Assembly: GCA_026023565.1 (NCBI GenBank)
Contig: JAPETS010000039.1
Coordinates: 124,001 to 188,000 of the forward strand
From: Cirrosporium novae-zelandiae
Taxonomy: Eukaryota
Direction: 5' to 3'
Length of the DNA: 64,000 nucleotides
The position numbers and the translations under genes were made by a program. Below the pieces are notes generated by a model. The model had not been told where the DNA came from. It ran no database searches and worked only from the letters and a program-made list of their open reading frames with translations. Shown one piece after another: positions 20,056 through 64,000 of the stretch (position 1 is its first letter; the number at the start of each line of letters is the position of its first letter).

Positions 20056-20414
20056 ATGGCTTCAGTTCAGCCGCCCCCGAATATGATGCATGGCGGGTCC
20101 CATTCCCTGACTTCCAAATTAACACAACAGGAAGTACAACAAGTATACCAAGTAAGATTTTCTCCCTTTGCCTATTATATCCAATCACCCTCAACCTTAG
20201 TAACCATCAATTTTTTTCAACAATTCAGTACTAACATGATGACAGAAATACAAGCAGATGAAAGAACAAGGTGTTCGCAATGATGATCCTGAATTCATCA
20301 AGGCGCACAACTTACTTTCTGCCATAACTCAACAACAAGCGTTTCTCAAACAGAGACAGACCGTTGTCCAACAGCAGCAGCAAGCTCAACAGAGGTTACA
20401 TCAGCAGCAACAGC

Positions 20415-20463
<49 letters not shown>

Positions 20464-23400
20464 TATACAAAATGGAACAACTACAGATGGTACGGCAACC
20501 CTCAATGGTCATCTTGGCCACTATTCATCGTTTCTTCTCCCCCCTAACTCGAATGTTTTCTTAGGCCAATATCCACCTGAACCCAATGCTTCGGCTGCCC
20601 AAAATGTTTCGAACTCTTCTGCTCAGCAAATTGGAACCCCATCAGGCGCGCAGAAAGCCCCCATGCCTGCACACAACAGCTTTACACCGGATCAGTTAGC
20701 TATCCTTCGGAATCAGATCATGGCATTCAAGGCGCTGTCTAAGAATGCACCTATTCCCCCTAATATTCAAAGGCAACTCTTCGTGTCACATAACAAGCAA
20801 TCCCCTACTCCTGCCCAAAGATTGGCAGCTGCTAGAGATAGCCTTGAGGATCAATCTCAGTCACAAGATGAATCAAAACCTGGAGCTACCAGTGGTGAAC
20901 CATCAACGCCAGCTACTCATGTTTACAAAACCTTTACCTCACCATATAAACTAATGAAACCTACCATCAGCTATTCAGATCATAAACTTCGCAATCACAG
21001 GCCATTCATCTCCAGCCTTATGCCGGAGGGCGTGGATGCCGATCGCATTCGAGAAGACCAAGAACGAATAGTCTACAATCGCATTATATCTCGGAGAACG
21101 GAATTAGAGCAACTTCCTGCCACCATTGATGGTGCTGTCAAATTGAAGAGGCTTATCGAATACAAAATGTACAATCTTATAGCGAAACAACGCAACCTTC
21201 GACGATTGGTAAGTCAGGAGATGGTTTCTCAGGACAACCTTGCCAATACTGTTAATCGTTCTATGTATCGTCGACCAAAGAGACAGTCTGTGAGAGAAGC
21301 CAGGATCACTGAGAAGTTGGAAAAACAGCAGCGAGACGCTCGCGAGTCCAAAGAGAAGAAAAAACAGACGGACTATCTTCAATCCATTATAGATCATGGT
21401 ACAGAGATTTTGACAAGCGCCACCAACACTCGTTCCCGGGCACAGAAACTCGGTCGTATGATGATTCAACACCATCAGTATATGGAAAAGGAAGAGCAAC
21501 GGAGAATAGAAAGGACAGCAAAACAACGTCTGCAAGCTTTAAAAGCGAACGACGAAGAGACGTATCTCAAACTCCTTGGTCAGGCCAAAGATTCTCGTAT
21601 TTCCCACCTTCTGCAGCAAACGGATGGCTTCTTGAAACAATTAGCCTCTTCTGTTCGACAACAGCAGAGAAATGCTGCCGAGCGATATGGCGGTGATGCT
21701 TACTTTGAAGAAGATATCGAAGAAGATGAGGACCTAGAAGAAGATGAAGAGGGAGGTCGTAAAGTTGATTACTATGCAGTTGCTCATCGTATCAAAGAAG
21801 AGGTTAAAGAGCAACCTGGTATCCTCGTCGGCGGAACTCTGAAAGAATATCAAATCAAGGGCTTGCAATGGATGATTTCTTTGTACAACAACAACCTCAA
21901 CGGTATACTGGCAGATGAAATGGGTCTCGGAAAGACTATTCAGACTATCAGTTTGATTACTTACTTGATCGAGAAAAAGAAGCAAAGCGGTCCATTCTTG
22001 GTTATTGTGCCTCTGAGTACGCTTACCAACTGGAATTTGGAATTCGAGAAATGGGCACCATCCGTGAACCGAGTTGTCTACAAGGGTCCACCAAATACCC
22101 GAAAACAGCAGCAACATCAAATTCGTTATGGGAATTTCCAGGTTCTGTTAACCACGTATGAGTATATCATCAAGGATCGGCCGGTATTAAGCAAGGTTAA
22201 ATGGGTTCACATGATCGTTGACGAAGGCCATCGAATGAAGAATGCACACTCAAAGCTTAGTAGCACTTTGACTCAATACTATATCACTCGCTACCGGCTG
22301 ATCTTGACAGGTACGCCTCTTCAGAATAATCTGCCAGAGTTGTGGGCCCTTCTCAATTTCGTGCTCCCTACTATATTTAAATCAGTCAAATCCTTCGATG
22401 AATGGTTCAATACACCATTCGCCAATACTGGTAGCCAAGATAAGATGGAGCTATCAGAAGAAGAACAGCTGCTTGTTATTCGGCGTCTACACAAGGTTCT
22501 TCGACCCTTCTTGCTACGTCGTTTGAAGAAGGACGTCGAAAAGGATCTGCCTGATAAACAGGAGCGTGTCATCAAATGTAGATTCTCTGCTCTCCAAGCT
22601 AAGCTATACAAACAACTTGTCACCCATAACAAAATGGCTGTTAGTGATGGTAAGGGTGGTAAGACTGGAATGCGTGGTTTAAGCAATATGCTTATGCAAC
22701 TTCGAAAGCTTTGCAACCACCCCTTCGTGTTTGAGCAGGTCGAGGATGAAATGAATCCAGGCAAGCTTACAAATGATCTGATATGGCGTACGGCTGGCAA
22801 GTTTGAACTTCTGGACCGGATTCTACCCAAGTTTAGAGCATCGGGTCATCGTGTCCTAATGTTTTTCCAAATGACACAGATCATGAACATTATGGAAGAT
22901 TTCCTCCGCTTCCGTGGCATGTATTATCTCCGCCTTGATGGATCAACCAAATCCGATGATCGATCTGAGCTTTTGAAGCTTTTCAACGCACCAAATTCTC
23001 CATACTTCTGTTTCTTGCTTTCCACTCGAGCTGGTGGTCTCGGTCTCAACCTTCAGACCGCAGATACTGTGATCATCTACGACTCTGATTGGAATCCTCA
23101 TCAAGATTTGCAAGCTCAAGATCGTGCCCATCGTATTGGACAGAAGAACGAAGTTCGCATTTTAAGATTGATTAGCTCAAATTCTGTTGAAGAGAAAATC
23201 CTTGAGCGTGCCCAGTTCAAGCTCGATATGGACGGCAAAGTCATTCAGGCTGGAAAGTTCGACAACAAATCAACAAACGAGGAACGTGATGCCTTGCTCC
23301 GAACTCTACTTGAAAGTGCTGAGGCTGCGGACCAGTTAAATGATCAAGATGAGATGGATGATGATGACTTGAATAAGATCATGGCAAGATCTGACGAAGA

Positions 23401-24511
23401 GGAAATCCTATTCCAGAAAATGGATGAAAAGCGCCACAAAGAAGACGCGTACGGTCCTAACCATAAGTATCTTCGTCTTATGGGAGAGTCCGAACTTCCT
23501 GAGATTTATCTTACCGATGATAACCCTGTTGAAGAGGTACACGAGGAAGAGACTTATGGTCGTGGTGCTAGAGAAAGAAAAGTGATGAAATATGATGATG
23601 GCCTTTCTGAAGAAGCTTGGCTTCGAGCCGTTGATGATGATGATGATACTATTGAAGCCGCCGTTGCACGCAAAGAAGCCAAGATGGAAAGAAGAAAAGC
23701 TAACAAAGAGAAAAGGAGCAAGAGAACATCAGGTGTCGATAGCGAGTCCCCTGAACCTTCAAGGGAAAGTTCCGAAGCTCCTTCCGGGAGAAGGAGAAGA
23801 GGAAAGTCATCCTCTAAACGAAAAATTGAAGAAATCGAGGAAATTCCACCACCGTCTAGAGGACGTAAGCGTGCTCGTGCTAAAAGCAACATCGATCCTC
23901 TTAGCAATTCCGAACGTGATACTCTGCAAAAGATTCTTGATACCACATATGATACTCTTATGGATTATGAGACCCCCATTGGTGGCCGGCTTTTAATCGA
24001 TCCATTCTTAGAACCACCTTCCAAGCAGCTATATCCTGACTACTATGTTCTTATCAAGAAACCGATTGCCATGGATATCATCGGCGAGAGAATCAATCAG
24101 AAGCAGTATACGCATACCAGGGAATTTAGGGAGGATATCTCATTAATGTGCAATAACGCAAGGACCTACAACGAAGATGGCAGCATGCTATATCAGGATG
24201 CCATTGAAATAGAGGTATGTTTCTGTTTCTCCATCTGCATCTTAACAACTAATGTTTCCTGCCAGAACTTTGTCCTCCAAAAACTCCGCGAAGTCACAGA
24301 AGCACATCCAGAGTTCGCCGACTTTGGGGATGACTCCACCTCTATGGCAGATGGACAATCCACTGCCGCGGTCTCCTCTAGTGTTGGTACACCTCTTGCC
24401 TCTGGGGCTAGTTCACAAAAACTCAAACTTACATTTAATGGTGCGAATGGCGGAGGCAAGGATGGGACCACTGCAAATACCAGTGAAAGGGAGATGAGTG
24501 ATGATGAGTAG
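20056..24511 (+). CDS. STH1: SNF2-family ATPase of RSC/SWI-SNF (Sth1/Snf21): QLQ, HSA, DEGH helicase, SnAC, bromodomain
   Basis: QLQ (FTPDQLAILRNQIMAFK), [43 protein letters not shown], bromodomain YPDYYVLIKKPIAM..NARTYN. First exon from ATG 20056, intron ~20152-20245. Confidence 0.95.
20370..20461 (+). repeat. (CAA/CAG)n coding microsatellite giving a polyglutamine tract in STH1
   Basis: Long pure caa run (~20415-20461) encoding part of a ~20-Q tract. Confidence 0.92.
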
Positions 24512-41865: not shown

Positions 41866-44309
41866 ATGTACCCGGCGCACCATGCAGCGATGGCACCGCC
41901 ACAGAAGCCAGAAACCTTTATGCTCTCTAATGAAGCTCAACAGAGTTTACCTCAGGATGCCCAGGTAGCGCTGCAACAGGTTGACAATCGTAAGTTTGCC
42001 CTGTGATCCTATTTGGAATTCGCGACAAGACAGCCTCACTGCATTGCAGAAAGCATGTAGCTATCCGAATGTTGCCGAGCTGATTATCTATGATAGTGAA
42101 ATATTTTCTTATTTCTGCTCCTGTCGATTGGACCCCAGATCAATGTATTCGTAGATTCCTTCTACCAACCGGAGAATATGTTTCATGTGTGCTATGGTAT
42201 GGTTGTTCTAAAAAATGAAATTGCCTGGAGAAGCCGGCGCGAAGAACATCATCTGACGGGATTGCAGGAACAACCTTTTCCACATCTCGGGTACCGATAT
42301 CGTGCGATGCCTATCATTCCGTTTCCAAGCTTTTGGACGACCAGTTCGAAACACCAAGAAGTTTGAAGAGGGTATTTTCTCGGATCTGCGAAACTTGAAA
42401 GCTGGGACCGATGCATCGCTCGAAGAACCAAAAAGCCCTTTTCTCGATTTCTTGTACAAGAACAACTGTATACGAACGCAAAAGAAGCAGAAGGTATTCT
42501 ACTGGTACAGCGTGCCGCATGATCGGCTGTTCTTGGATGCTCTAGAGCGAGACTTGAAGAGAGAAAAGATGGGTCAGGAAGCTACAACGATTGCCGTCAA
42601 CGAGCCGGCTCTGTCATTCGAATTCGATTCTTCGCAATCTCTATTCGAACAACTTACAAAGGCTCAACAAGCGAACACTTCCTCTTTCGCTGCTAATGCT
42701 AGTGCCACCTACACCCAACCATCCCCCCCGGAAATTAGGGCAGCAGACCCGATGCCACCTCCCCAGATGCCACCTTCAACCATGGCCATGATGCAGGAAG
42801 ATAATCGCATGATGGCATATTCTCAGATGCCTGTGACCCATGGCATGACGGTTAGCTATGTTAAGCCAGAGCAAGATTATGGGTCGCAAATTACGTACGA
42901 TCGGAATGGCATTGCGCTTGGTAGAGTGCACCAGAGGCATGCATCGATGCCCTCGTACATGGAGTATTCTCCTGCTCCATCATTTGTATCATCGCATTAC
43001 GACGACTACAGCAATCGAGGTATTTCCTACGAACCTAATACCCCTCCACAACATGCCTTACCTCTCGCAGCTGAACCGGCTTATATCGCAAACGAAGATA
43101 CTGGCCTATATTCTGCCATTCCAGATCTTGCAGCATCTGCCTACGGAGGAATGATGCCGATACCCGCTTCAAGCCTTGGTGGTCTACAATTTTCTGCTGC
43201 CACTCGTACGTTCCCTGGTGGAAATGTCTATTCAGTAATTGAAGGCTCGCCAACCTACAAGCAAAGACGGCGACGCTCATCTATCCCCCCCGCTGTCAGC
43301 ACCGCCGTCGCCGCAAACCTTGCCAATGGCCAAACACATTCCGTCCATCGCTCCAGTGATTTGCGTCGATCAGTTTCAAGTTCAGTAAACCCGGTGACAG
43401 AAGCCGAGGAGCCAATACGCGCTTCGCCTGCAGCTACGATGGCTAGTTATCCTTCTATGATTGGCCAACAAAAAGAGCTTTTGGAACTTGCTTCACGGCA
43501 TGGAACCCCGCTGTCAACCCTGGAGGGTAGCCCAAGTCTAAATCCTTTGGCTGTCATCAATCAGCAGGATGACTTTTCGCATTTGACCAATGGCGAATTA
43601 TCTGAGGCCTCGGTGCATACAAGCCCAGCGGCTGCAGTCCGCCCAGAACGACCAGGCCCTGTGCGTCGAGCTCGGAGTGCTACGATGATGGAGTTAGGTC
43701 CATACCCGCACAAATCACATTCCTGCCCGATTCCTACGTGTGGACGGCTGTTTAAAAGATTGGAACATCTGAAACGGTATGTCTGAATCTCTATTTTTAC
43801 ACTGAAGCATTTTGTGAAGATGCTATTTTTGGTTTCATTCATTTATTTGGTTTGATTGTCATTTGTTTCCAATTTCTGTAGCCGCCTGGCTGACCGGGCG
43901 CCTAATTTAGGCATGTACGCACGCATACCAATGAGCGGCCCTACATCTGTCCTCATTGCAATAAGACCTTCTCCCGGTCCGACAACTTAGCACAGTAAGT
44001 TGTATTCGGCGTCTAAAAATAGTTAGGGTGGAACTAATTGTTATTGGCAGACACCGTCGCATCCATGAACAACAACAAAATGGCGAGTTCCCACCTTATA
44101 ATAGTGAGGAGGAAATCGAGAATGAGGAAAATGAATTTGGCTCTCTAGAAGAAGAACCTTCCCCAAATTCGGATCAAGGCTTCATTCCCACTAGTATTGC
44201 TACAACGATGGCCAATATAACCTCGATGCCGGTGTCAACTGTTGGGTATTCAAATAATCCAATGGCGAGTCAACTGGTTACAGCGCAGATGCTACAACAA
44301 CCACTGTAA
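41866..44309 (+). CDS. STE12: Ste12-like transcription factor (STE domain + two C2H2 zinc fingers), 5 coding exons
   Basis: [133 protein letters not shown]. Confidence 0.97.
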
Positions 44310-46112: not shown

Positions 46113-48010
46113 ATGGAAGCCTTGCTCCACCAGTCTCGCGCCATGTGCCCTTTCCTCAAGAAGACGTCCCCGTCTACCTTGAGGGCCCTTTCCACTGCGA
46201 CTCCTCGTCAGGCTAGTCCTGGCGGGGGAGCCATGTCTAACTTACAGGTCATTGCTCGTCGCTGCCCTGTCATGGGCAAGGCACTTGCTGTGCAAAGCGC
46301 TCATAGCAATCGAGTCTTGCTCAGCGCCGCCAAGGCCTATAGTGGAAGGGCCTCAATCCATACATCCAGGCCAAAGGGGGCAAATGTTGCTACCGGGGTT
46401 TCGGGGAAGCCTCATCAAGGTTAGTAGGGCAATGAGGACATAATTTCTCCTAATGAAGTGGCTGATTTCGTTGGTATATAGCTCCCCTCCCTCGTGTGAC
46501 TCAGACCACCGCTTGTAGCCGTGACCAAAATCTTGGAGTTGGTCCTAAACCGGCTGCCCCAGCAACTACCAAATATGATTATGACGGCTTCTATAACAAT
46601 GAGCTGGATAAGAAGCACAAAGATAGATCTTATCGCTACTTCAACAACATCAATCGAATGGCTAAAGAATTCCCTCGAGCCCATATGGCTACTATGGAAG
46701 AAAAGGTCGATGTATGGTGCTCGAACGATTACCTTGGAATGGGTAGGAACCCTCATGTTTTGGAGAAAATGCATAAAACTATTGATATGTATGGTGCTGG
46801 TGCTGGAGGAACTCGTAATATCTCCGGCCATAACAGACATGCTATTTCTCTTGAGGCTACATTAGCAAAACTTCATGCCAAGGAAGCGGCTTTGGTCTTT
46901 TCATCTTGCTATGTGGCCAATGATGCTACTTTGGCAACATTAGGAAGTAAGATGCCCAATTGTGTCTACCTTTCTGATGAATTGAATCATGCTTCCATGA
47001 TTCAAGGTATTCGCCACTCCGGAACCAAAAAGATCATTTTCAAACATAACGATATGGTTGACCTGGAAGCGAAGCTAGCTTCCCTCTCCCCTGAGTGCCC
47101 CAAGATCATCGCCTTTGAGAGTGTTTATAGTATGTGTGGTTCCATCGCTCCTATTGAAAAAATCTGTGATTTGGCTGAAAAGTATGGCGCTCTCACTTTC
47201 CTTGACGAAGTTCATGCTGTTGGTATGTATGGACCACATGGTGCTGGTGTTGCTGAGCATCTTGACTATGACGTTTACGCATCCGGTGGCAATACCAAGG
47301 GCACAGTCATGGATCGCATTGATATCATTACTGGCACTCTCGGTAAGGCTTATGGTTGTGTCGGTGGTTACATTGCAGGGAAAGCCAACATGGTCGATAC
47401 AATTCGGTCTTTGGCACCTGGATTCATTTTTACAACATCTCTTCCACCTGCAACCATGGCCGGTGCTCAAATCGCAATAGAATACCAGGAGCAATACCAA
47501 GGCGATCGCCGCCTTCAACAAATGCACACTCGTGCAGTGAAACAAGCTCTCAGTGAAAAGAACATCCCAGTTATTCCTAATCCCTCACATATCGTTCCCT
47601 TGCTAGTTGGTAATGCCGAACTTGCAAAAGAGGCTTCCGACATGCTTCTCGAAGACTATAACATTTACGTCCAAGCAATTAATTACCCAACTGTTCCAGT
47701 TGGACAAGAACGCCTGAGAATTACTCCTACACCTGGTCACACCAAAGCTTTCCGAGACCACTTGGTTGAAGCCCTTGAAGGTGTCTGGAACCGCTTAAAC
47801 CTCAAGCGTACCAGTGACTGGGCTGCCGATGGTGGGTTCATTGGTGTAGGCGTCAAGGATGCCAAACCGGTTGAGCCAATCTGGACAGATAAACAGCTCA
47901 ATCTGAATAAGATTGAAGGAACGATGAAGGCCGGTGGGGCTATTAATGATAGCATCCTCGAGAAAGAACTAGGTGGTGTTGCCCCTAAGCCCATTTCTGC
48001 TGCTGCTTAG
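46113..48010 (+). CDS. HEM1: 5-aminolevulinate synthase, mitochondrial; 1 intron (~46420-46480)
   Basis: [71 protein letters not shown] (PLP lysine). Confidence 0.97.
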
Positions 48011-50189: not shown

Positions 50190-51923
50190 ATGGAATATGA
50201 TGCAAAGACCCGTGAGTCCTTCGATTTCTATTGTTTCTTGAACAATATATTGATGTTGGTTCTTGGTGTAGCACCCTATAGCACCGGCGACAAAACTTCC
50301 TTCGCCTTCGTCTCCGCGCGCGATCGATGGCCTATAATCATTGTAGGACAACTTCCCCTCAGAAAAATTCCTTATTCGGACAAGCATTCAATTGACAAGA
50401 AGGCAACGGTAGACTGGCGCAATCGACGATGTCCACCGCGCCGTGGGTGAGATAACCGATCCAGCCAAACATGCCGATGGCAAGAGAATCATTGAGAAGT
50501 TGGCGACGTTAAAATATGAAGTGCAACATGATAGGCAGTTGACGTAAGCTTTGTTCTCTCACCTAGTTGAGGTCTACTCATTAGAACTTATGAAGGGCGA
50601 CGGGAATGTGTTGCTAAGGAGAGTGAGATTTAATATATAGACCCCTTGAGGATGACGGTGAATCCGACGTGGAAGATTATAACAAGGAGCTTGCAGCTAG
50701 GGGAAATCCTACCTGGTTCGATGTGTCATGGTTATATTCCGAATGCTATCTCTACCGGTAAATATTTCCCCCAATGTTGTTCATGCTTCCCATCAAACTG
50801 ACCCTCCCTCCTAAGCCGCATAAACACATTCTTCACCCTATCCACCTACTGGAAATCCTACGATGTCTTTTCCGCCCAAAAAATCAGCACATTCCGTTCC
50901 TCGAGGCCGGCTGTCCTGGAACTCGCCGCCCGCTACAAGGAGCTCTCGGAACAGCTCACGCACGAAGCATCCTCGGAGCATGATAAGGCAGCAGAAGAAC
51001 TCTTATTCGACGAAATGTGCGAAATCTGCCTCTGGGGAAACGCGACCGACCTCTCTCTGCTCACGAGCTTGACATACGATGACATCCAGAAGCTGCAAGG
51101 CTCACAGGCGCGCAAGGACTCGGAAAAAAACATACTCGTTAACGACCTCCCGGCCGCCTACCACGTGCTGAAATCCCTTCAGAAATCTAACCCCTCGACC
51201 TCGGACACAGATCTCGATGCCCGAAGGGTCGACATCATCCTCGACAACGCAGGCTTCGAACTCTATGTTGACCTCATCCTCGCAGGGTTCCTGCTGGCCT
51301 CCAACCTCGCCACCTCGGTGGTGCTGCACCCCAAATCCATGCCCTGGTTTGTGTCGGACGTACTGCCGGGAGACTTTTCCGCCCTGCTCAATGCCCTCGC
51401 TGATCCCCAAACCTTCTACTCCTCCCCTTCCTCCTCAACCACGGGAACAGCAACCCCACCAGGAACAAAAACACCCCCGCTAACCCCAGCCGAAACCTCC
51501 TCCCTCCAATTCCTCTTCCAACAATGGAGCACCTACCACTCCACAGGCCGTCTCCTCATCCGCCCCAACCGCTTCTGGACAACCGCGCACACCTACTGGC
51601 GCCTGCCCCACCTCTCCCCCTCCCTCCACAAAGACCTCCAATCCTCCGTCCTCGTAATCTTCAAGGGGGACCTCAACTACCGAAAACTCGTCTGCGACGC
51701 CGACTGGGATGTTTCGGTGCCGTTTAACCAGGGGTGTGGACCTTTGGGGGAGAAGGGCAGCGGGATTAGGGTTCTGGCCTTGAGGACTTGTAAGGCGGAT
51801 ACGGTTGTGGGGTTACCTAGGGGGAGGGACGAGGAGCTGAGGGGGGGTAAGAAGGAGAGGGAGTGGAGCTGGAGTGGGAAATGGGCGGTTGTGCAGTTTT
51901 GGGATGGGAAGGAGGAGGCTTAG
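50190..51923 (+). CDS. DUF89/ARMT1-like damage-control metal-dependent phosphatase, ~5 exons
   Basis: MEYDAKTP|PYSTGDKTSFAFVSARDRWPIII, WFDVSWLYSECYLYR, CLWGNATDLSLL, DIILDNAGFELYVD, PWFVSDV, IFKGDLNYRKL, ALRTCKAD. Confidence 0.92.
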
Positions 51924-52040
51924 GGTATGAGTGGGTAGTATGGACACTTGGAATTTAGCTGGTTGGGTTGGGTTGGATTGGATTGGTGAACAACCCTCCC
52001 CCCTCTCTTCCCTGATAATATGACATGGATATGACCACCC

Positions 52041-52043
<3 letters not shown>

Positions 52044-52078
<35 letters not shown>

Positions 52079-52127
52079 ATATCCCCTACGAAAGCTACGA
52101 TATTAAACAGATAGACACACCCAATAT

Positions 52128-52160
<33 letters not shown>
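52044..52160 (+). repeat. (ATACCC)n and (AGAC)n microsatellites
   Basis: ccatacccatacccatacccataccc..., then gacagacagacagac... Confidence 0.9.
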
Positions 52161-52624
52161 AAATCCAACTACATGAAGTTTTCTTTTTTTTTAACAAAAA
52201 AATAAAGCTGATTCAAATGGGATCTACAGTGTAGGTATTTAAGCAAGAAGGTATGGAATTCAAGCATATGGAATCATTTATTCATTCATACATGGGATTT
52301 TTTTACAAAAAAATAAAGCCGATTCAATGGGATATACAGTGTATGTATATAGGGTATTTAGGCAACAAGGTATGGAATTTGCAAATCAAATAAGTAAGTA
52401 AACCCCATTCCCCCCCAAGCCCCCAGGGCTTGGTTTGGATTTAATAAGCTAGGTCAGGCTGAGGCATATATCATATTATATCAGAGCACCTTTCCTCCCT
52501 TTCCTTTCCTTCCCTCCTCTCCTCCATACCCCCGTGACTAGATAAAAGTAGCTAACCCCATTCCCTCCCAAAGCCAGCCCCCTCCCCCCTCAATCATCCA
52601 TCCATCCATTCACTTCCAACCTCA

Positions 52625-52954
52625 TCATCCCTTCATCTTCCTCTTCTTCTCGCACGCCTGCCCTGGAAGAAAACACCAACCGTTTTCGAGATCGGAGATA
52701 AAATCCGACGAGTCCTCTTCTTCGCGTTTCTCGTTTGAGGAGGTCGTGGCTTCTACCTGGATGAGTATTGGGAGATCGGTGGGTATTTGTGGTTGGGAAG
52801 GTGGGGTTGTTGTGATGAGGGTGGTGGGGATGTGGGAAGGGGTTGAGATGGTGGTTGAGATGGTAGGGGGGAGAGGGATGGCGAAAGAGGTTGAGAAGGT
52901 CATAGTGGTGAGGATGTAGAGGGTTGTGAGGATGGTGGTGGTGGTGAGAGGCAT
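52625..52954 (-). CDS. ppgA: Alpha-factor-like peptide pheromone precursor (PpgA/Ppg1/CCG-4 type), single repeat
   Basis: Hydrophobic signal-like N-terminus (..TSFA|IPLP), Thr/Pro pro-region, Kex2 site NEKR, and nonapeptide WCFLPGQAC followed by E-KKR, matching the WCxxxGQxC pheromone consensus. Confidence 0.78.
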   Translation of the reverse strand: MPLTTTTILTTLYILTTMTFSTSFAIPLPPTISTTISTPSHIPTTLITTTPPSQPQIPTDLPILIQVEATTSSNEKREEEDSSDFISDLENGWCFLPGQACEKKRKMKG

Positions 52955-54045
52955 ATTTCGTTTGTGATGGTTAGATGGTGTCGAAGTCTAGAGGGGTTTG
53001 CCGTAATTAAAAAGGGAAGCTTGAGGGATTGTAGGTGATACTGTTGGTTTAGTTGGTTAGATCATGGGTCTTTTTTATGAATAAATGAAGGGATTTAGGC
53101 ATTGGCTTACCGCAAGTTCTTGGCTAGCTGAGTAGATCTCTTCGATTCGATTCAATTAATTGATGTCACCGTGAGCACGACGTCTGTTGTGCGGTTTGCT
53201 TGAGATGATCGATGGTAGTGTGGCGGGGGTATTGGCTGGTCTGCTTCTGTTTATGCGGACGATATCCTTCTCTCTCCGATTGTAGTAGCTAAGATCAAAA
53301 TCTTAGAAGATGCAAAGACCACTTGCCACAATGTCTGGCAGTCGATTTAATCTGTCTATACCCAACCGGATATTTATACTTATTTCTATCCCGCCCTTGG
53401 GGGGTCTAGGTAGAGTAAATAGATAGCATGGGCGCTCTCAAGTCTCACGTCTCAAGTACGCACATGCATACACGCAGTGAAACCTGACTGAAGTCGCAGT
53501 AGTACCAACACGATGTCCCCTTTGTACGAAACGTAACGTTAGGACAACCAACTTTTCCTGCTCTTGGACGACAAGAGGGTTTGGGGTTTAGAAATTTGGA
53601 TATGGGTATGATCATGGGTGGTGGATAGTGGATATTGGATCTGAGGGAGTAATGGTAGTGTAAGCAAGTGGATAGATTTGACGCAGTAGTGGTGGAGCGG
53701 GATTTGCCACACTTACCCAGTAGATTGAGATGGGGTGATGTGGAATGAGGTGATATTCTTTGAACCAGCCAAAGTGTTGTTATTGTCAATGAAGCAGTAA
53801 GATAACAATGATGAAGCTGCAAATGATGAAAACGGCGATGTGAGTTTGCCTTTGTCTTTGTAGATCCGTCGTCGTTGTGATTTATAAGAAGCGAATTGTC
53901 CGACAGTTTATGCTTCTTCTTCAAGAGGAGTAGTAGAAATGCAATGAGATAAGTAAATTGATCACATAGAAAAGAAGGAGAAAGGAGGAAGAGGAAGTAG
54001 AAGAGGAAATCTATCTTAAATATGTAGTAGCAAGGATTGCTGGTG

Positions 54046-54572
54046 CTATTGATTATTGATTATTGACACTTGGGAGAGGATGAGAGAGGCTTTATCAAGT
54101 ATGAGTATATCTCGATGGGTGAGTTTGGGGGTGCGGTTTGATGAAGTTGGGCGAGCAGAATAGGGGTGTCAATATCACTAATTATTTCTTATTGACCTGA
54201 CAGGCAGGAGAGAAAAAAATGCAAAAGCTGCCTCTTCGGTGGTTAGATATATCATGTCAATAAGCCAACCAGCCCTATTAGCCAAAGTTGGTGAGGCAGG
54301 AACCTGAATTTTGTCTATTTGTAGCTATGGTCTTGAATGGGTATCCACCTCAGTAATTGCCATAGGTAAGGTGGATAGGCGTTGCTAAGTCCAATGTATA
54401 CGGTCCTTGAAGAAAAGAGAAATGGTTCAAAAGTATATTAGTAGGAGGATTCGACCTAAATCTTTGAAGACGAAGTCGTAGAGTCCTAAAGGTGACTTGA
54501 ACTGCTTTCATCTCATCTTGGATTGAGATATACCACTCGATTCGGTTCAGAGTAACGAGAAGAGTCAATAAG
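54046..54572. promoter_or_regulatory. Cluster of TATTGA/TCAATA elements upstream of the pheromone gene (candidate MAT1-1-1 sites)
   Basis: CTATTGAT-TATTGAT-TATTGAC (54046-54067), GTCAATAT (54168), CTTATTGAC (54188), GTCAATAAG (54256, 54564). Confidence 0.45.
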
Positions 54573-55812
54573 AGAACCGAACTGAGTTGACCTGTCTTGA
54601 TGAAAATGTTTAAGAGTTAAGAGTGAGATAATAAGAGTATGTACAACATGTTGAGGCAGTCTGATGACTAGATCGTAGAAGAACTATTTCCATAGGCTAT
54701 CGATCTATCCAACCTCACAAAGTAAATGAATACTTTAGCTACGCTATGTTGTTGACATGGCCCTGGTCGAACTAAATCACCTAGATAAATCAATCCTTGC
54801 CATACTATTTTGCATCTGGAAGGCATTTAAACAAATCCAAGTTTAGAATGGAACGGAGGTTTGATTAGAAAATTGGGTGGTTGGGAGATTTACTGTGGTA
54901 AGAAGGAGTTGGATGAAATTTAATAATGAAAGGATCCAGTTTAGTTCAGCTGCATATACAAAATCCAAAGGTATGAACATAGTTCAAATCCTAGATTTTG
55001 TTATGCAGATGTCAAATTTTACTACAATAACGCAAGGAAGTAAATAAACAAATAAACAAACAAACAATCTATCCTATCTTATCTTCCATCTCCCATCTCT
55101 TTTACCATACTGTACCCATACGCATACCACATCCCCACCCACAATTACAATACCTACAAGTTTACAACTAAACCAAACGTGCCAAACCAAAAAATCGGAC
55201 CCTTAAACTCCACTCCACCGATAAGAAAAAAAAAGAAGGGACGCATGATCTACATTGCTTGCATTGCATGCATTAGCGTATTTTGAACGCGTCTAGAAAC
55301 TGAAAAAGACACATGTTCGTCCGCACACAGATGGGAATGGGAATTTGCAAAAAAGAAAGAGAAAAGAAAAGAAAAGAAAAGCCCTACTACCGACGTATTT
55401 AATGTAGTACGGCGACAATATTGTTATTGCTATAGGAAAAAAAAAAACTTATATTTATATACTTACTAAACAATTTTTTTCTTTTTTTCTCTGAGAAAGT
55501 TGTGGTTGCACTTTATCAACTAAAAAAAGATCCCGCCCATTAGCTAGTAAGTGTATAGTATATATTTATTTACACATACATATAGAAAGAAGGGATCTCC
55601 TTGATATGAAACTCTTCATACATATGTGGTGGGTGAGTGTGTGTGTGACCCTAGTTAGACTTTTGTTTCTCTTTTGGCTACTGGCCGCCGTCATGTAGAT
55701 TCAAGTTTTGGTTTTTACCTGTGTGTATGTGTATGTGTATATGAGGTGAATATAGCATGGTATTAAATGAATTGATTAATGGGAAAGGCAAATGTTTTTT
55801 TTACATACGTGC

Positions 55813-55846
55813 ATACATACATACATACATACATACATACATACAT
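55813..55846 (+). repeat. (TACA)n microsatellite
   Basis: catacatacatacatacatac... Confidence 0.9.
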
Positions 55847-56797
55847 GTAGTAAGACAAATGTTTCAGCTCGTTGGATGAAGGGGGGAAAGAGAAAATAAA
55901 ATGTTTAAGGCTGGGGATTAAGATTTAAGTTGGTTGGATATATACATGTACACGTATGTAAGGAAGCAGGGAGGAAAGAAAAGAGGAATAATTAATTAAT
56001 TCATTCATGTCTCAGAGTGAAAAAGAAAAGAAATTATCTAATTCCCCTGGTTGTATAGACAACTAAGTCCATGAAGTAGTCATCAATTACTTTTATAGGT
56101 ATTAATTTACTATAACACGTACCGTATATACATCATATCGGCGGTGAATCTCTAATCCCCCTTCGTGCGTTTTCGTTGTTCTTGACAGTGGGTAAACCGA
56201 CCGGTCGGGGCGGCTGGCTGGCTGGCTCACTCACCGCCGACCTACTGTACAAGTACAGCACTTGCCCGACCCAAGCCCGAACGATTCGGCGGTCACGACC
56301 ACCCACGGGCCTTTAGGCGGCGGCCCCCCGGCTGGAAAGAAAAAAATTTACTTTTTTTCAAAGTAGGATTTACGATGTGGTGTGGTCGGTTATCGATAAC
56401 TATAATAATGATGATCATGATGATCATGATGAGTAAAATAGACTACCTAGGTATATTGTCGAGATTCTTTGATTACATACCTGTTGGACTACAAAATATT
56501 TAGATGACGATGACAATGATGGGAGACTCTGTGTTATGTTATTTTATTTTGCTCCCAGTAAAAATACAAATGTTAATGAAATTTCAATTGTGCGTGCGTG
56601 CGTGCGTGCAATCAATATGCCCAGCCCTATCCAGTAGGTATCTCAAAAGACAGCCAACAATAAAAATAAAAATACAGTCCCATCCTTTTGTCAATGCAAA
56701 TGCCAATTCCCAACGCCAATTTTCAATTGTTCCAGGAGCTCAGTAGACCAAAAACATAGCTTGCTCGGAATAGATACCCCATTGCCAATCATATGCT

Positions 56798-57814
56798 TTA
56801 TCTCACAAGTCTCCTTCCTTTAATACTCATGCCCTCTCCATCAACTAACCTCTTCCATCTTCCTTTTATAGTATCCCTGGAGCATCCCACTTGACGTGCA
56901 CACTCCTCCCATTGTTGGTCCGAAAGTTGAATTTTCGAGAGAAGTAGAGCAATGAGACGTTTGTCTGTGGATGGAGTCCAGGAAAGTTGTTGGATATACT
57001 CCGGTGATGGTGAAGGTGTTGGGTCTTCATCGTCGTCATCCTCTGGATATAGTTGAAGATTGGCGTTCTCGGGTTGGGGTTGTTCGTGCCGTTCAGCTTT
57101 TGCGGGAGTGGAGGGTGTGACGTGTTTACGAGTTTGAAGCGGTGAACATACCGGAGCTGACATGGCATAAGACAGCTCATCCTTCGTCAGCCCTAGCGGG
57201 AGATTTTCAGAGTTGCGGATGCTTCGTCGTTGCTTTGGTGTTCTTGGTGGTTCGGTTAATTTAACCTGTTTTCGAGGCGATGCCTTGTGCTGTTGGTTTT
57301 CGTGAATGCCCTTCTTTGTAGCAATTGTATCCTTCGTGAGGTCATCAACATCATCTCGGCACCTTTTGATCCCTTTAGGTACAGAAATCTTAGGCTTAGA
57401 GGTAGTGGTTGCATCTTGTAGTCGCTTTGATGCGAGCCGCACAGGGGCAGGCATCGCAACGCTTGTGCGCCTTGGTGCAATGATCACGGTAGGTGTGAAT
57501 GGTTTAGGTAGTGGAATAGGTGCGGCAGGAAGGAGTGTTCGTTTTGCGGCGCCAGTAGAGGGTGTATATGTCACGCGCGCATTGTGCGATGGCGATGGAG
57601 AAGGAGGAGCGGCAAACATGCATTGCTGTTGGAGGAGTCGACATGCAGAATAGACACGCGAGAGGGCATCGGAGTCATCTTTAGAAGGTCGAGAAGGCAT
57701 GGAGGAAAGATAAGGTGTCTTCGGAGTAGTCGGTGCCTGCATGTTGTTGATGTTGTTGATCTGATTGTTGCCAGAGCACCTGGGAAGGGCCGAGGGTAGA
57801 AGCATTGCTTTCAT
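56798..57814 (-). CDS. Hypothetical Ser/Thr/Pro-rich basic protein with C-terminal Myb/SANT-like domain
   Basis: Intronless 338-aa ORF; WTPSTDKRLIALL..QQWEECARQVG.SRDTIKGRWKRL has Myb-type Trp spacing. Confidence 0.72.
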   Translation of the reverse strand: MKAMLLPSALPRCSGNNQINNINNMQAPTTPKTPYLSSMPSRPSKDDSDALSRVYSACRLLQQQCMFAAPPSPSPSHNARVTYTPSTGAAKRTLLPAAPIPLPKPFTPTVIIAPRRTSVAMPAPVRLASKRLQDATTTSKPKISVPKGIKRCRDDVDDLTKDTIATKKGIHENQQHKASPRKQVKLTEPPRTPKQRRSIRNSENLPLGLTKDELSYAMSAPVCSPLQTRKHVTPSTPAKAERHEQPQPENANLQLYPEDDDDEDPTPSPSPEYIQQLSWTPSTDKRLIALLLSKIQLSDQQWEECARQVGCSRDTIKGRWKRLVDGEGMSIKGRRLVR

Positions 57815-59661
57815 GATAAATATTCAATGTGGACGTGGTGATGATATCGATAAGAAGTTGTAGATATAGCTGAGATATATGATGATGCCTTTCTTAGTCA
57901 CGATCTCTTAGGTGTATGCGCGTTTTGTCACGGTGGAAGGAGTTGATGATCAAGATAAAGAACCAAGCGCAAGATTGCGCCAATTTCTTAATCCGGCGCA
58001 ATCGATCAATTTTTTCGGGTCGCGAATTGAATTATGACAGATCCAAGGGATTGGCGCAATATATATGGTTAGGCGATGATTGTGTGTAGATGATAATGCA
58101 CTTGATAGAAAGGATTGTTTGTAAACAATAGATGTGTGTAGTGTTGATAGTTGCAAAGGGAAAGGAAGAGGGATCGGGGAAGAATGGGAATTGGGGACAG
58201 AAGAAGGGAGCTTGGGTCCTTTGCGACAGGACTCACTAAAAGCCAGTGGGCCTTAGCTTTTGGCCCTACTGTGCCTACTTGTGGGTTACTAAGTGTCCGA
58301 GCCGAATAGTCTTCACTGGTCCTAGTTACACCCTTAGCTCATCTTAGTTCATCTCTTTTCTATTTCTTATTCGTCCAACCTCGTACTTTCCACTTACCAG
58401 TTGATACCAGTTGATACTAGTGAACCTTGCTGGTCCTTTGAGGGTCCTTTCCATCTCCCAATGCTATCCCAGTTGCTATCCCAGTACTCATCTCAACACC
58501 AACTCCTAGATTGCATCCTAGCCTGCGAATTGGCCTGAGGTGGTCACCAGGTGGCCTCAGGTTTTCAAGCTGAGGTCATAGGTGTATGAAAAACCTAGAA
58601 TATAATACCGATAATACCGTATCCTATTCAGGTACACCCACATGAGGCCATTCAGAACTGCCTGCTGTCATCGGGAACATATTTGTCTCAAATGACGTTG
58701 GGAGCAGAATGGGGACGTTGATCTATTGTAGATTATAGAGATAGCCTATAGCCTGCCACGCCTGTGGGAGTCAATGGTCGTTGACGTGTACGTTTGATGA
58801 ATGGACATGATGGATTGCTCGGTGTTGATTTTGTGACAAGTGCCTGGTTGTTAGGGTGTTACTATCGCATCATTCTATGGGGAATTAATATCTGCAGCCC
58901 GGTTCTAAGACTCATCACCTCCCTCAAATTCAATGTCAAAAGGTAATATGTACAGTACATGCCCCAAATCCCCACAATCTATACCATCGAATACATTAAT
59001 TAGGCAAGCAATAAGCCCTCAATTCCTCTCCCTAGCTTGCATTTTGATGAGGGGATGAGGGATTTACAGAACCCCATTCGAGACAGCTCAGCCACCAAGC
59101 ATGTCAAAAGCTCCACTTAACGCGTCGACGTGTCTAACACGCGACAACCTCGCGACTTTATACTTTGGTGCTTTTGACGTGTCTGCCTGTCATACGATAT
59201 CAACCCCCAAATCTTTACTTTAGTAGTACGCTTGCAGCAATGTCGATGCCAATGCCATAAAAGATACTGAGACTTAGGGATTTATGCATATGAAACAATC
59301 TCATTCTAATTTGTTTTGTTTGAATAATGTTGTTTAATAATTCAGTATAGTGTGTAATGTAAAGCCCTCCCTCGCAGTTCACCAGCGTCCTCTAAAAAAA
59401 CAGCTGTCCAGGTCCTCATGTAAGGTAAAGAGGTACCTGTACTTAACGTACAAGACTGCAAAATTTCCATTTGGATGAAACCCTCTCTCCCCACCTATTC
59501 CCTTTATTGCCTGTCCTTCATATCCATTGTCCTTCGCCATTCTGACCAGGTGAAAATAATGTACACGGCCACCATAACCACAATTAAAATATCAATAGAA
59601 CACGATAAGACAGGATAAGAAAATTGACTTGGTTGTCGTTGAATCGATGACTCCCCTCTTT

Positions 59662-62600
59662 TTAGAATGCGCCGTCTACCTCTCCATCGGCTATCCTTAA
59701 CCTTTCCTTGGTAGTCTTGGCTCTTTTACTTGGACCTTTCCTTGTTCCGCCCCTGCCTCGTCCTCTGCCAGGTATATCGGCAGGGAGAGGATGATGATTA
59801 TCAGAGACGGGTGTATTGATACCGGAGGGTTTATTGCTACCATCATCGAAGTTGCCCTCGCCTGCTGATCTGTTAGCTTAGAGCCCGGGAGATTAAATTA
59901 GTGACACGAATCGGGATGCAATTACCTTCGTGATACATCTCGTCGAGGGATAGCCCTCTGGCCCTCTTGCGACCCGCAACCTTCTTTCCAGCCTTTTTCT
60001 GTGTCTCATCTATGGCATTTTCTGCTGCCTCTTTCTCTTTCTGCTCAATGAGTTCCGCTTCATCATCATCGGCCAGCCACATAGCAATATCTTTAGTTCT
60101 GTTCTCCCTGCTACGAGTGTTGAAATCGACGTGAGCGCCAGCACCGCCAGAAATGACAACCCGTTGAACTTCTTCCTTTTGAAGAGCACGTTTCCTGATG
60201 CGCTCTTCGATGGTCCCACGTGTGATCATACGATAGACGGTAACCTGTTTGGTCTGACCAAGACGATGAGCACGATCCATTGCTTGGGAATCAATGGTTG
60301 GGTTCCAGTCCGAGTCGTAGAAAATAACAGTATCCGCTGAAGTAAGGTTGATACCCAAGCCACCTGCTCGAGTGGATAAAAGGAAGATAAAGATCTCTGG
60401 GCGAGTTTGGAAGTCATGGACTGTATCTCTTCGATCCTCGAGCTTTGTGGAACCATCAAGACGAAGATATTTGTAGTTCCGATATGTCAAATATTCTTCC
60501 ATTAGATCAATCATGCGAGTCATCTGGAAGTAGAGTAGTACACGATGGTTGTTATTCTTGAGTTCACGGAGTAGGTCATCGAGTTTAGCCAGCTTGCCGG
60601 AATCAGTAACAAAGCGGCGCATTGAGGGAACACTAATATTGGTATATCGAGTCTGTTCTGAGATTGGTGGTGGTAACATTCGAGTAACAGGGAAGGATGC
60701 AGGGTCCACCTGTTTCTCGAGTAATGCTTGCTCTTCTTGCTCAAACACATCGAAGAGTGCTTGTCGCATAGGAATATTGAACACCTCATTCTCCCTCTCC
60801 ACAATAGAATTTTGATCGGAACAGATGATTTCGATAGGTGGTGCAGAGGCAGCAGGAGTAGCACATTGTTCTAACCGGAATAGACCTCGATCATGGAAAG
60901 AGGTAGTTGACACTTCTGTTAGATCAATAAAACAATGTTCAGTTGTTGCTTCAGCTAGTGGCATCCAATTATTACGCTCGACGATGTTGAAGAAAGCATG
61001 AACAGGGGTAAACTTGGAATTTTCATCCTCCTCATCGTAGATGACATTCAATCTTCCAAGGCTGTTTGACTTCTTGCTGAGATCGACAGCACGTTGGAAT
61101 ATATCCTTCTTTGAACTTTGGTGAAGTTCACCCGGAGATGTATCGGTAAAACGTAACCACGAGAATGCCTCATTTTCTTTCATACTTTGTCGAATATTTT
61201 CCGGAGTCCAGATATTCATTAGATTGCGAATATATCTCCCCCGGAAGCCTGCTATCTGGTTGTCCGGGCCGGGGACATCGATTCGTCCAGCTGAACTGCA
61301 AAGCATGCGCGGCAAATCGTACTTAATAGGATTGTGAATTGAATATCCAATGGTAACATCATGACCTTCTCGTATGAAGGATGCAGTTTGGGCAAATGTA
61401 GCAAACGACAGTGGTGATGTCGTCTCCGCTCGTTCGAATAGGTCGGGATGGTTGCACACTTTCCGGAATTGCATGACCAAGTTCATCAGAGTCGCTGTAT
61501 CATCTTGATCTCCCACCGAGGCCTTTTCAATGAGATCCATAATGCTGATCTTGTTACGAAGATTAGCGTAGTATGCTCGTTGCCGGTAGGTAAGATCACA
61601 GAAGACATCCTTCTCAACCTTGTCACCAAGCTCCTTTTGGACGTGTTTCTTGATACGACGTAGCATAAATGGTTTAAGGATCATGTGTAAACGTTTGAGT
61701 TGATCTTCGTTGAGTTTTGTGTTGCTCTGGGCATGACTTTCGATATCTTTAGAGAACCAGTCACTAAATTCATCATGAGAATCAAATAGAGTTGGCATAA
61801 TAAAATGTAATAGAGCCCACAACTCTTGCATGTTGTTCTGGATTGGGGTGCCAGTAAGCAAAAGCCGATTACGACAGTGGAAGCCAAGAAGGTTCTTCCA
61901 TCGTGAACTTTGAGAAGACTTTATTGCCTGAGCCTCGTCCAGAATCATGTATTGCCATTTGATTTTTTGGAAATACTGAGTATCCTGAACAACCAGTTGG
62001 TAGGAGGTGACTAAAACATGAAATTCCGAGGACTGAGTATAAGTTATATGCTTACGGTCCCAAAACTTCCGAAGAGTCTTTCGATCCTTTGCATTACCCC
62101 AGTAAGGAAGTACTTTCAAGTCAGGAACGAATTTGGTAATTTCCTGTTGCCAATTGTGCAATGTAGACGCTGGGGCAATGACTAAGAAAGGACCCCAGAT
62201 GTTGTGTTTCTCTGCAAGATAAGCCATGACGGATATTGATTGAACTGTTTTCCCGAGACCCATTTCATCGGCAAGGATACCATTAATGCCTTGCTCGTAA
62301 AGATTAACAAGCCAGTTGAGACCTTTAAGCTGGTACTCCTTCAACTGGGCGGTCAGCATCTTGGGTTGCTCGACATCCATATCACCCAAACTCGTAGGAT
62401 TCTGGAAGTTCATCTCCCCCTCATCAAATTGAGCCATTTTGTTCTCCTCTTCGCCGTTAAATGCCCTGGCCCTGTCTTGGGCCTGCTGTACAGCTTGCTG
62501 AGCATTTGCCATTGCAGCCTCCTTAAGCGCTGTTTCATCTTCGGCATCAAAGTCAAGGTCTTCAAAATTAGTGACTTTGGTTCCGGGCTTAACACTGTCA

Positions 62601-64000
62601 GGCAGGGTAACGGTATGCGCGGCAGGTTTTGTGGTAATTTTTTCATGAGTAGCAGCCGAGACGCTGTCTGTAGACCTTTCTACCTCGTCAGTTTTGATCT
62701 TACGTCCAATAAAATGGGAATATAGCTCGGTTTGCGAGATTAAGAAGTTCAGCTTCCTCTTCTGCCGATTGGCTTCACGATCAGCTTCAGCCTTCTTCGC
62801 GTTCTCGAGTTCTTGCTTCTCAGCTAAGCGACGCAGATCCCGCTCTTCTCTCTCATTGCGTTTCCAGAAAGACATCATCTCTCGCATAGTCCTCTTGGCA
62901 CGCGCTTGAATTTCTTTGACACTCTTGTTTGTCTTGAGTTGCCATCTTCGAGCTTCCTTTGAGGCGAGTTGGGCAGTCTTTCGCAAATTAGATGTCCTAA
63001 CCGTGGTAGAATTATCCTTAACGCGGGCAACTTTGGGGATGTCTTTCCGAGCAAGATCTCTCCAGATTTGGTCATAAATCTGATTGTATCCCTTGGAAGT
63101 GTAATTGACCACATTCGCTGCCGGTGCTGGAGAAGGTTCGCTAGGTTCAGGCTCTACTGGTTCCTTTAGTTCTTTTGGCTCCTTCTTCACTACCTCCTTC
63201 TCCTTTGGAGCTTCTTCTTTCGGAGCAATATGGACAAGGTCATCTGTGGTACCTGCACGTTCCATAGCGGCATAAGCGGCAGCGGCTCTATCCTTTTCAC
63301 TTTGCTTCTTCTCTTTCGATTTCTTGGGTCTGGTGCTAGTGGTTTGCCTTCCAGATTTCCTCCTATTAGGTTCCGGAGTAGCGTGGCCATCCATGTGAAA
63401 TGAGCTCATCGTGCCTCCTTCTAGGTTCGGTGCTAGTGGGGTTACCTCACGAATCTCTTCAGGAGCGTCGCCTCGGTCAAGAATCTTTTGAGTATTTCTA
63501 GCCTTCTTCTGCGCCTTGGAAGCTTCCTTCAAGAATCTTTCACGCTCCGCTTCATCCTCACATTGTTGTGCTTTCTCTAGAGCTTCTTTCTCCTTTTGTG
63601 TCTCTTTGTGAACAGTGGCCTCACGACGTCGTTTCCGTTGCATGTCTTTCTTGCGTTCTCTATCGGCAAGAAGATCCTTCTTTTGTACTTCTAGTTGAGC
63701 AGCTTGTTCAAGACGCTGACGGAAGAGGGTCTTTGTACCACGCTTCCTAAACTCTTGGCTGAACTGAGTCGCGTAGGCAATTCGCCGGCGCTATTTCAAG
63801 TCAACAATTAAAATAGACAAGTAGGTTTCGTCGTGCAACACATACCTTTCGTTTCCCAGCCTCGCTCGCTTGAATTTCAAGTTCGCGCTTCTTACTCTTC
63901 GATTGGTAGGCTTTGCGCTCATCCTCGAACTTAGGAGAATCGACATCGCTAAGCTCCATGACATCAATTCGAGCCATGGCTTTTGAAACCTTCTCTTTCT
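59662..64000 (-). CDS. INO80: INO80 chromatin-remodelling ATPase (5' end outside window); introns ~63792-63845 and ~59863-59924
   Basis: DBINO ([48 protein letters not shown]), [19 protein letters not shown], split ATPase insertion, [20 protein letters not shown]; last exon GEGNFDD..VDGAF*. Confidence 0.97.

Follow-up and report, generated by a model that had tools for sequence, protein, structure and literature searches.

Within the 64,000-nucleotide stretch of Cirrosporium novae-zelandiae DNA analysed here in its entirety (GenBank assembly GCA_026023565.1, contig JAPETS010000039.1, positions 124,001 to 188,000; hereafter, the window), a 4.9 kb gap between two genes, the 3' ends of which are both directed toward the gap, contains a single candidate gene, a small open reading frame (ORF) on the minus strand that is most likely a homologue of the alpha-type pheromone precursors of the Ppg1/PpgA class. 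The ORF (52625..52954) starts with an ATG, encodes 109 amino acids in 109 codons followed by a stop, and is delimited by a tandem pair of stop codons at its end and, 11 codons before the ATG, by a stop in the same frame; the reading frame of this intronless ORF is unbroken throughout. A preliminary description of this DNA had listed the ORF, a signal-peptide-like start, a Thr/Pro linker, a KR site, an acidic spacer, the core WCFLPGQAC and the closing EKKR, and each of these elements is found where it had been placed. The layout of the locus is as follows.

52625..52954, minus strand: whole ORF, candidate alpha-type pheromone precursor, with phmmer matches to named pheromone precursors
52880..52954, minus strand: residues 1-25, putative signal-peptide-like start MPLTTTTILTTLYILTTMTFSTSFA, hydrophobic, ending in SFA, with IP next
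52730..52879, minus strand: residues 26-75, pro-region rich in Thr, Pro, Ser and Ile, delineated by composition
52724..52729, minus strand: K76-R77, distal Kex2-type dibasic site, read from the sequence
52679..52723, minus strand: residues 78-92 (E78-G92), acidic leader EEEDSSDFISDLENG, aligned by BLASTP with the acidic inter-repeat spacers of Fusarium
52652-52678, minus strand: residues 93-101 (W93-C101), pheromone core WCFLPGQAC, identified by motif scan and similarity
52640..52651, minus strand: E102 followed by K103-K104-R105, proximal C-terminal Kex2/Kex1-type site, read from the sequence
52625..52639, minus strand: residues 106-109, the tail KMKG and the stop, with the CAAX box absent

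At the start of the protein, the small residues S and A occupy positions -3 and -1 ahead of IP. Thr accounts for 22 of the 109 residues and Pro for 12, and the pro-region (residues 26-75) is possibly O-glycosylated.

When the ORF was compared exhaustively, using phmmer, to 1,835,955,588 representative proteins, three proteins were detected at the threshold of E<=0.001, and two of these are named multi-repeat alpha-pheromone precursors. The first, P0121 from Schizothecium vesticola ('Mating pheromone' in UniRef; E 4.9e-5, five matched stretches), holds five units with the sequence WCVLPGQPCF or WCVLRGQPCF; the second, P0122 from Fusarium albosuccineum ('pheromone precursor 1' at NCBI; E 6.5e-4, seven stretches), is made of WCVWPGQPCW-type units. 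Both match residues 81-106 of the query, that is, the core and its flanks. The remaining protein, P0123 (959 residues, rich in Ala, Thr, Ser and Val), was rejected as spurious, given that it is matched via the low-complexity stretch 24-99. Two sets of 200 shuffles each, one of the whole sequence and one of the C-terminal 32 residues, all stayed below 30 bits, with maxima of 4.5 and 7.5, respectively; because the shuffles never rose above 7.5 bits, the similarity to the precursors is not compositional.

Pairwise comparison with BLASTP aligned the leader, the core and the dibasic site together with the Fusarium units (27 residues, pairwise E 2e-5), whereas the alignment with the Schizothecium units comprised 21 residues with 57% identity. 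In particular, residues 80-106, EDSSDFISDLENG-WCFLPGQAC-EKKRK, have as their counterpart in the alignment the first unit of the Fusarium protein, EADAKAVADLDKR-WCVWPGQPC-WKAKR; the other Fusarium units and those of Schizothecium align in a similar way. All residues of the published consensus (W, C, P, G, Q, C) are present in the core, which is identical in seven of nine positions to WCGRPGQAC of Sclerotinia borealis and to WCGLPGQPC of Botrytis elliptica and B. deweyae (PMC10569646, Table S3), and in six of nine to WCTRPGQGC, the receptor-validated peptide of Paracoccidioides and Histoplasma (PMC3464258). These phmmer and BLASTP matches to named precursors bear out the earlier suggestion of an alpha-factor-like precursor, for which homology appears to be the most likely explanation.

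The core motif was also examined on its own. The back-translated pattern WC...GQ.C occurs once on the two strands of the window, with no match in any of 100 shuffles, and a six-frame regular-expression search of the window likewise yielded this core as the sole instance; in 20 Mb of simulated sequence, both strands included, there were zero motifs. By our own arithmetic from the base composition of the window, about one bare chance motif is expected per 35 Mb genome, and therefore the motif by itself is not decisive. The case rests on several things in combination: an ATG-initiated frame, the motif near its C-terminus, a dibasic site two residues after the motif, an acidic spacer and a KR before it, and sequence similarity; indeed, the segment that harbors the core, the spacer and the dibasic site is the same segment that matches real pheromone precursors. 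Neither a second nor a decayed core was found in any frame of the region 51900-54100, and the ORF carries one core.

In several respects, the ORF conforms to the features of the class, for which the criteria that concern the core are stated in PMC10569646 and PMC3068285. The core falls within the range of 9-14 residues, with two Cys around a GQ (or PG) turn and the usual WC start; a dibasic Kex1/Kex2 site follows the core (E102-KKR105, to be compared with C-F-KKR in P0121); and similarity to accepted members is detectable, with phmmer E-values that come from summed repeats. Two other features are missing: several tandem cores, in place of which there is one core without remnants nearby, this feature not being universal in the class; and a Kex2 site or Ste13 dipeptides directly before the core.

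With respect to the first of these, the preliminary description had considered the single copy unusual. The count holds, and the unusualness was overstated: one-core precursors are reported for Paracoccidioides and Histoplasma (PMC3464258), nine species of Erysiphaceae have one core, or repeat, each (PMC10569646, section 20, Table S3), and in Ceratocystidaceae the number of cores is given as 'between one and thirteen' (PMC13037118). Furthermore, the one-core peptide of Paracoccidioides activates PreB in yeast (PMC3464258). In view of these published precursors, the single core described here is not new.

The real oddity of this ORF appears to be not the single core but the presence of Asn-Gly where KR is expected. 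The junction reads DLENG-WC, as opposed to the aligned DLDKR-WC, EDKR-WC and EEEKR-WC in the Fusarium and Schizothecium units; some Schizothecium units, however, contain Asn-Pro or Ser-Pro after KR at the position that corresponds to N91-G92. Because BLASTP aligns the leader EEEDSSDFISDLENG with the Fusarium and Schizothecium units, it would be the counterpart of an ordinary acidic spacer. Of its 15 residues, 7 are acidic and none is basic, and there is no X-Ala or X-Pro dipeptide in register, in agreement with the earlier view that it is not a Ste13 substrate. A change of one base would turn AAC, the codon of N91, into a Lys codon, and likewise GGT, that of G92, into an Arg codon. Splicing was considered and rejected as a way around this arrangement: the leader, at only 45 nt and with no AG ahead of the TGG, can neither be spliced out nor be bypassed by an intron linking KR to the Trp, and the GT...AG pair from 52755 to 52662 would define a 94 nt intron that shifts the frame and deletes the core. 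Thus, the Asn-Gly at the Kex2 position leaves the N-terminal release of the peptide unexplained. A comparable situation is described for Hymenoscyphus repandus, where the cleavage sites similarly are located away from the cores rather than next to them (PMC10569646).

Comparison with the known systems puts these features in perspective. Among the closest parallels, Paracoccidioides PBalpha and Histoplasma capsulatum PPG1 are also small precursors with one WCxxPGQxC core and a KR site, and also come from fungi in which, at the time, no sexual cycle had been observed (PMC3464258). The differences are that cleavage at KR there 'would release the mature pheromone', whereas KR here is 15 residues upstream; that the PBalpha/PPG1 gene contains a 79-bp intron, whereas the present ORF is continuous; and that activation of PreB has been demonstrated for their peptide, the present one being a candidate (PMC3464258). 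With the multi-repeat Ppg1/PpgA/Ccg-4 precursors, represented by P0121 and P0122, the ORF shares a putative signal-like start, the acidic spacers, the WC-x-[LW]-PGQ-x-C core and the dibasic site after the core. These two proteins contain, respectively, 5 and at least 7 cores, each located right after KR or after KR with X-Ala/X-Pro dipeptides, and the cores end in Phe or Trp; by contrast, the present ORF has a single core, with Asn-Gly ahead of the Trp and Glu behind the second Cys, and its Thr/Pro-rich pro-region comprises 50 residues. The general logic of Saccharomyces cerevisiae MFalpha1, namely, a signal, a pro-region, dibasic cleavage and acidic residues after KR, is common to both precursors. 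Nevertheless, there is no sequence similarity to MFalpha1, the Pfam comparison that included the yeast MF_alpha families gave no relevant match, and the ORF lacks the X-Ala repeats for Ste13 and has one core versus four.

The alpha-factor genes of Erysiphaceae resemble the ORF in encoding one potential mature peptide with a GQ turn; as they are described in PMC10569646, these genes have no recognisable Kex sites and no leading Trp-Cys, whereas the present ORF has Kex2-type sites on both sides and the full WC...GQ.C. The precursors of the a-type and HPP1 are, according to PMC3068285, similarly small and often unannotated, and HPP1 too has Kex2 sites, but they end in a CAAX box, unlike the present ORF, which ends in KMKG and has a signal-like start.

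Searches for closer relatives were negative. Pfam gave no relevant match for the ORF, P0121 or P0122, and contains no family for the alpha-pheromone precursor class. Word-index protein searches, with the ORF and with an alignment of the ORF and the Paracoccidioides 9-mer, returned five candidates each, none of which scored; the best score in the ESM Atlas, 0.77, was to bacterial lipoprotein clusters and is below any useful level; and of the 593 pattern stretches from a metagenome scan with the protein query, none was confirmed. Two metagenome loci, L001 (2001-2027) and L002 (1348-1374), that match the exact 9-mer by a degenerate DNA pattern were dismissed as chance occurrences because they are repeat arrays with a G+C content of about 60% and with stop codons around the match. 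The translations around the 9-mer match in L001 and L002 are identical, within a seemingly regularly spaced repeat array. The sequence WCFLPGQAC itself was not found in the literature searched, nor was the Aspergillus peptide WCHLPGQGC quoted in the preliminary description, and nothing in the protein collections appears to resemble the ORF beyond the core.

Among some 15 billion collected proteins, none has the exact sequence of the ORF, and neither the word-index nor the exhaustive search produced a self-match. A neighbouring protein of the same genome bin, unlike the pheromone ORF, is present in the collections; the ORF is therefore unannotated, gene callers having missed it, as had been anticipated for genes of this kind. 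The alpha-pheromone gene of Paracoccidioides was likewise missed or mis-annotated by gene callers (PMC3464258). The contig from sequencing run X1 is identical over the stretch, with a word depth of 361 and no variant; X1 is possibly the source of this DNA, so this is not an independent confirmation. Runs X2 and X3 do not cover the ORF stretch.

The gap in which the ORF resides is flanked on one side by the 3' end of an ARMT1-like (DUF89) gene on the plus strand, which ends at 51923. The exon 50802-51923 of this gene shows 99% identity over 99% of its length to the hypothetical protein M1834_006180 of Cirrosporium novae-zelandiae, the next best match being at 66%; this organism, a wood fungus, is placed by NCBI taxonomy in Xylobotryomycetes, Xylobotryales, Cirrosporiaceae. 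The opposite flank is formed by the 3' end of a Myb/HTH-like gene, which lies on the minus strand at 56798-57823. No frame between 52955 and 56797, including a 204-codon upstream frame, has a Pfam match, and no Rfam match was detected in the region from 48 to 58 kb. For alpha-pheromone loci, synteny is reported not to be kept beyond the genus or family level (PMC13037118).

The upstream region is of interest with respect to regulation by mating-type factors. In Aspergillus fumigatus, the MAT1-1-1 consensus (T/C)(T/C)ATTGA(G/T/C), or YYATTGAB, was defined on the ppgA, preA and tomA promoters, and ppgA is a direct MAT1-1-1 target (PMC8022922). In the window as a whole, 31 matches to YYATTGAB are seen compared to 37.6 expected, and seven of these are clustered upstream of the ORF. 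The features of this region are the following.

53785..54571, no strand assigned: cluster of 7 YYATTGAB matches within 787 bp, 831-1617 bp upstream of the ATG
53371..53378, minus strand: possible TATA box TATAAATA, 417-424 bp ahead of the ATG, from sequence inspection
53041..53110, minus strand: possible 70-nt intron of the 5' untranslated region (GTAAGC ... CTAAC ... CAG), 87-156 bp ahead of the ATG, likewise from sequence inspection

The cluster includes all four exact copies of TTATTGAC in the window, and three of its seven sites are arranged in tandem, as a 7-bp repeat, at 54046-54067. Seven sites in 800 bp were not reached in any of 300 windows simulated with the local composition kept, and among 30 permutations of the core, ATTGA ranked first in 53785-54571, with seven sites where the permutations averaged 0.41 and peaked at 5 (TTGAA). 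The same segment also holds 5 of the 57 YYTTGAAB matches of the window, which places this core second in clustering among the 30 permutations. Such a cluster of MAT1-1-1-type sites is suggestive of a pheromone gene, without being proof of one. The Ste12-type element TGAAACA offers no support: there are 11 copies in the window versus 13 expected, the nearest located 2.9 kb upstream. Together, the putative intron and the possible TATA box TATAAATA would give a spliced 5' untranslated region.

Several other features of the window were observed in passing. A gene for a Ste12/SteA-type transcription factor, the terminal regulator of the pheromone response pathway, is located at 42257-43783 on the plus strand (Pfam STE domain PF02200, E 3.3e-48), at a distance of some 9 kb from the pheromone ORF; the genes in between are just two, one of the aminotransferase fold and the ARMT1-like one, and this linkage may be a coincidence. 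The gene for the receptor does not lie in the window. The aminotransferase-fold gene is a large ORF of class I/II (46466-48010, plus strand; PF00155, E 3e-71), which, from its sequence, we take to be 5-aminolevulinate synthase. Two chromatin remodellers of the SNF2 family are encoded in the window, one of the Snf2/Brg1 type with HSA, QLQ, SnAC and bromodomain (20243-24511, plus strand), and one of the INO80 type with a DBINO domain (59873-63790, minus strand). In the intergenic region 3' of the ORF, two minus-strand frames of a short-unit repeat (51955-52080) would encode (Gly-Met)n and (Tyr-Gly)n, and in the long upstream intergenic region, a TACA tetranucleotide repeat (55802-55850) occurs along with AT-rich imperfect inverted repeats (approximately 55470-56030).

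Taken together, these observations lead us to consider it probable, with considerable room for doubt, that the ORF is a working single-core precursor of a peptide sex pheromone of the alpha type, i.e., of the class of Ste2/PreB ligands. What is at hand is the layout of the sequence and its similarity to known precursors, and the processing steps outlined here are modelled on the established yeast and filamentous-fungus pathway; the general scheme of alpha-factor processing by Kex2, Kex1 and Ste13 is described in PMC10569646. The precursor would enter the endoplasmic reticulum via its hydrophobic start and be cut by signal peptidase near or after Ala25; the Thr/Pro-rich pro-region, probably O-glycosylated, would be carried to the Golgi, where Kex2 would be expected to cleave after R77 (KR77) and R105 (KKR105). 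Trimming of the basic residues by Kex1 would then yield a 25-residue peptide, EEEDSSDFISDLENG-WCFLPGQAC-E, i.e. EEEDSSDFISDLENGWCFLPGQACE. With no Kex2 or Ste13 site abutting Trp93, either the acidic N-extended peptide would be secreted as such, or another protease would strip the leader to leave a 9-10-mer. The alpha-box factor MAT1-1-1 would probably drive transcription via the upstream sites with the ATTGA core, and the peptide would signal via a receptor of the PreB/Ste2 type.

A number of observations weigh against a working precursor. The start has a weaker hydrophobic core than those of the comparators, with a Kyte-Doolittle mean for the best 13-residue stretch (8-20) of 1.56 as compared to 2.07-2.30 in P0121 and P0122, and the N-terminus has no basic residue. 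Trp93 is preceded by N91-G92, where canonical precursors have KR or a run of X-Ala/X-Pro, and the nearest KR (76-77) is 15 residues upstream of the core. Two overlapping frames on the same DNA, of 125-126 codons, are open as well, because the stretch is CA-rich and of low complexity, and therefore the length of the ORF alone is weak evidence; neither the ORF nor these two frames have a Pfam match. The best single stretch in the phmmer comparison scores approximately 12 bits, the totals of 35.9-39.9 bits being sums over 5-8 copies of the same short match, so that the database evidence amounts to a single similarity of roughly 16-27 residues. The searches of proteins and metagenomes turned up no relative of the ORF, a result explained by the isolation of the lineage, and hence no evidence of conservation. 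As for the promoter, if the tandem triple is counted once, the cluster is reduced to five places, a number reached by 11 of 300 simulated windows, and the MAT1-1-1 consensus employed comes from Eurotiales, not from the class of the host. Finally, for Cirrosporiaceae, no sexual morph is recorded in PMC6712537.

The main rival to the working precursor is gene decay, in which the ORF would be a true homologue of alpha-pheromone precursors that no longer yields an active pheromone, the proximal Kex2 site having become Asn-Gly. This we regard as unlikely on balance, if deserving of serious attention: N91-G92 align with the KR of the Fusarium and Schizothecium units and are encoded by codons one base removed from Lys and Arg, the hydrophobic start is weak, the single core has no remnant copies nearby, and the family is listed with 'Sexual morphs unknown' (PMC6712537). 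Yet the frame is intact, the core retains its six consensus residues, the two remaining dibasic sites are undamaged, the cluster of MAT1-1-1-type sites is still in place upstream, and many supposedly asexual fungi retain working pheromone genes (PMC5307856, PMC3464258). A different and doubtful proposal, to which we attach rather little probability, is that this is an alpha-pheromone that dispenses with an N-terminal Kex2 site and with Ste13; the 25-mer with its acidic extension would then be either a pro-pheromone, activated by some extracellular protease or by cleavage of the labile Asn-Gly bond, or the ligand itself, and the Ste12 gene 9 kb away could hint at a linked mating module in this isolated class.

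The possibility that there is no gene at all, and that a chance motif coincides with an open frame in CA-rich, low-complexity intergenic DNA, appears quite improbable. Three overlapping frames of 120-126 codons are open, a bare WC...GQ.C motif is to be expected about once in a 35 Mb genome, and relatives were not found in protein and metagenome searches; on the other hand, the motif lies at the C-terminal end of an ATG frame, with KKR at +2 and an acidic spacer and KR before it, in a segment that aligns with real precursors. Moreover, pheromone precursors comprise two of the only three significant matches among 1.84 billion proteins, the motif is absent from 20 Mb of simulated sequence, and shuffled sequences do not exceed 7.5 bits. 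It seems, if anything, even less probable that the ORF encodes some other secreted product, such as a Thr-rich mucin-like protein or a precursor of Kex2-processed peptides or of peptides made on the ribosome and modified after translation (RiPPs), that is not a Ste2/PreB ligand. Half of the protein is indeed rich in Thr, Pro and Ser, and the Kex2 sites around a short Cys-containing peptide are reminiscent of the KEP layout (PMC7329392), but there are no repeats, so the KEP definition given in PMC7329392, which calls for repeated units between Kex2 sites, does not apply; no DUF3328 or tailoring-enzyme domain was detected in the 47 of 52 stop-to-stop ORFs of at least 90 codons that were scanned in the region from 38 to 64 kb; and the sole specific similarity is to alpha-pheromone cores. 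A prenylated precursor of the a-type or hybrid type was rejected, the C-terminus being KMKG rather than a CAAX box, and the start being hydrophobic.

A working alpha-type precursor at this locus would not change the current understanding of fungal pheromones, as it belongs to a known kind and departs from it in a small structural respect, and it would add another case of short pheromone genes missed by gene callers. Nevertheless, within the literature and the protein collections searched, it would give the class Xylobotryomycetes its first candidate pheromone gene, and the Asn-Gly in place of the proximal Kex2 site would amount to a natural test of what N-terminal processing an alpha-type pheromone needs. 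If the gene is real, it would also be a genetic hint that Cirrosporium, known, according to PMC6712537, only in the asexual form, retains mating signalling or some other use of peptides in communication between cells.

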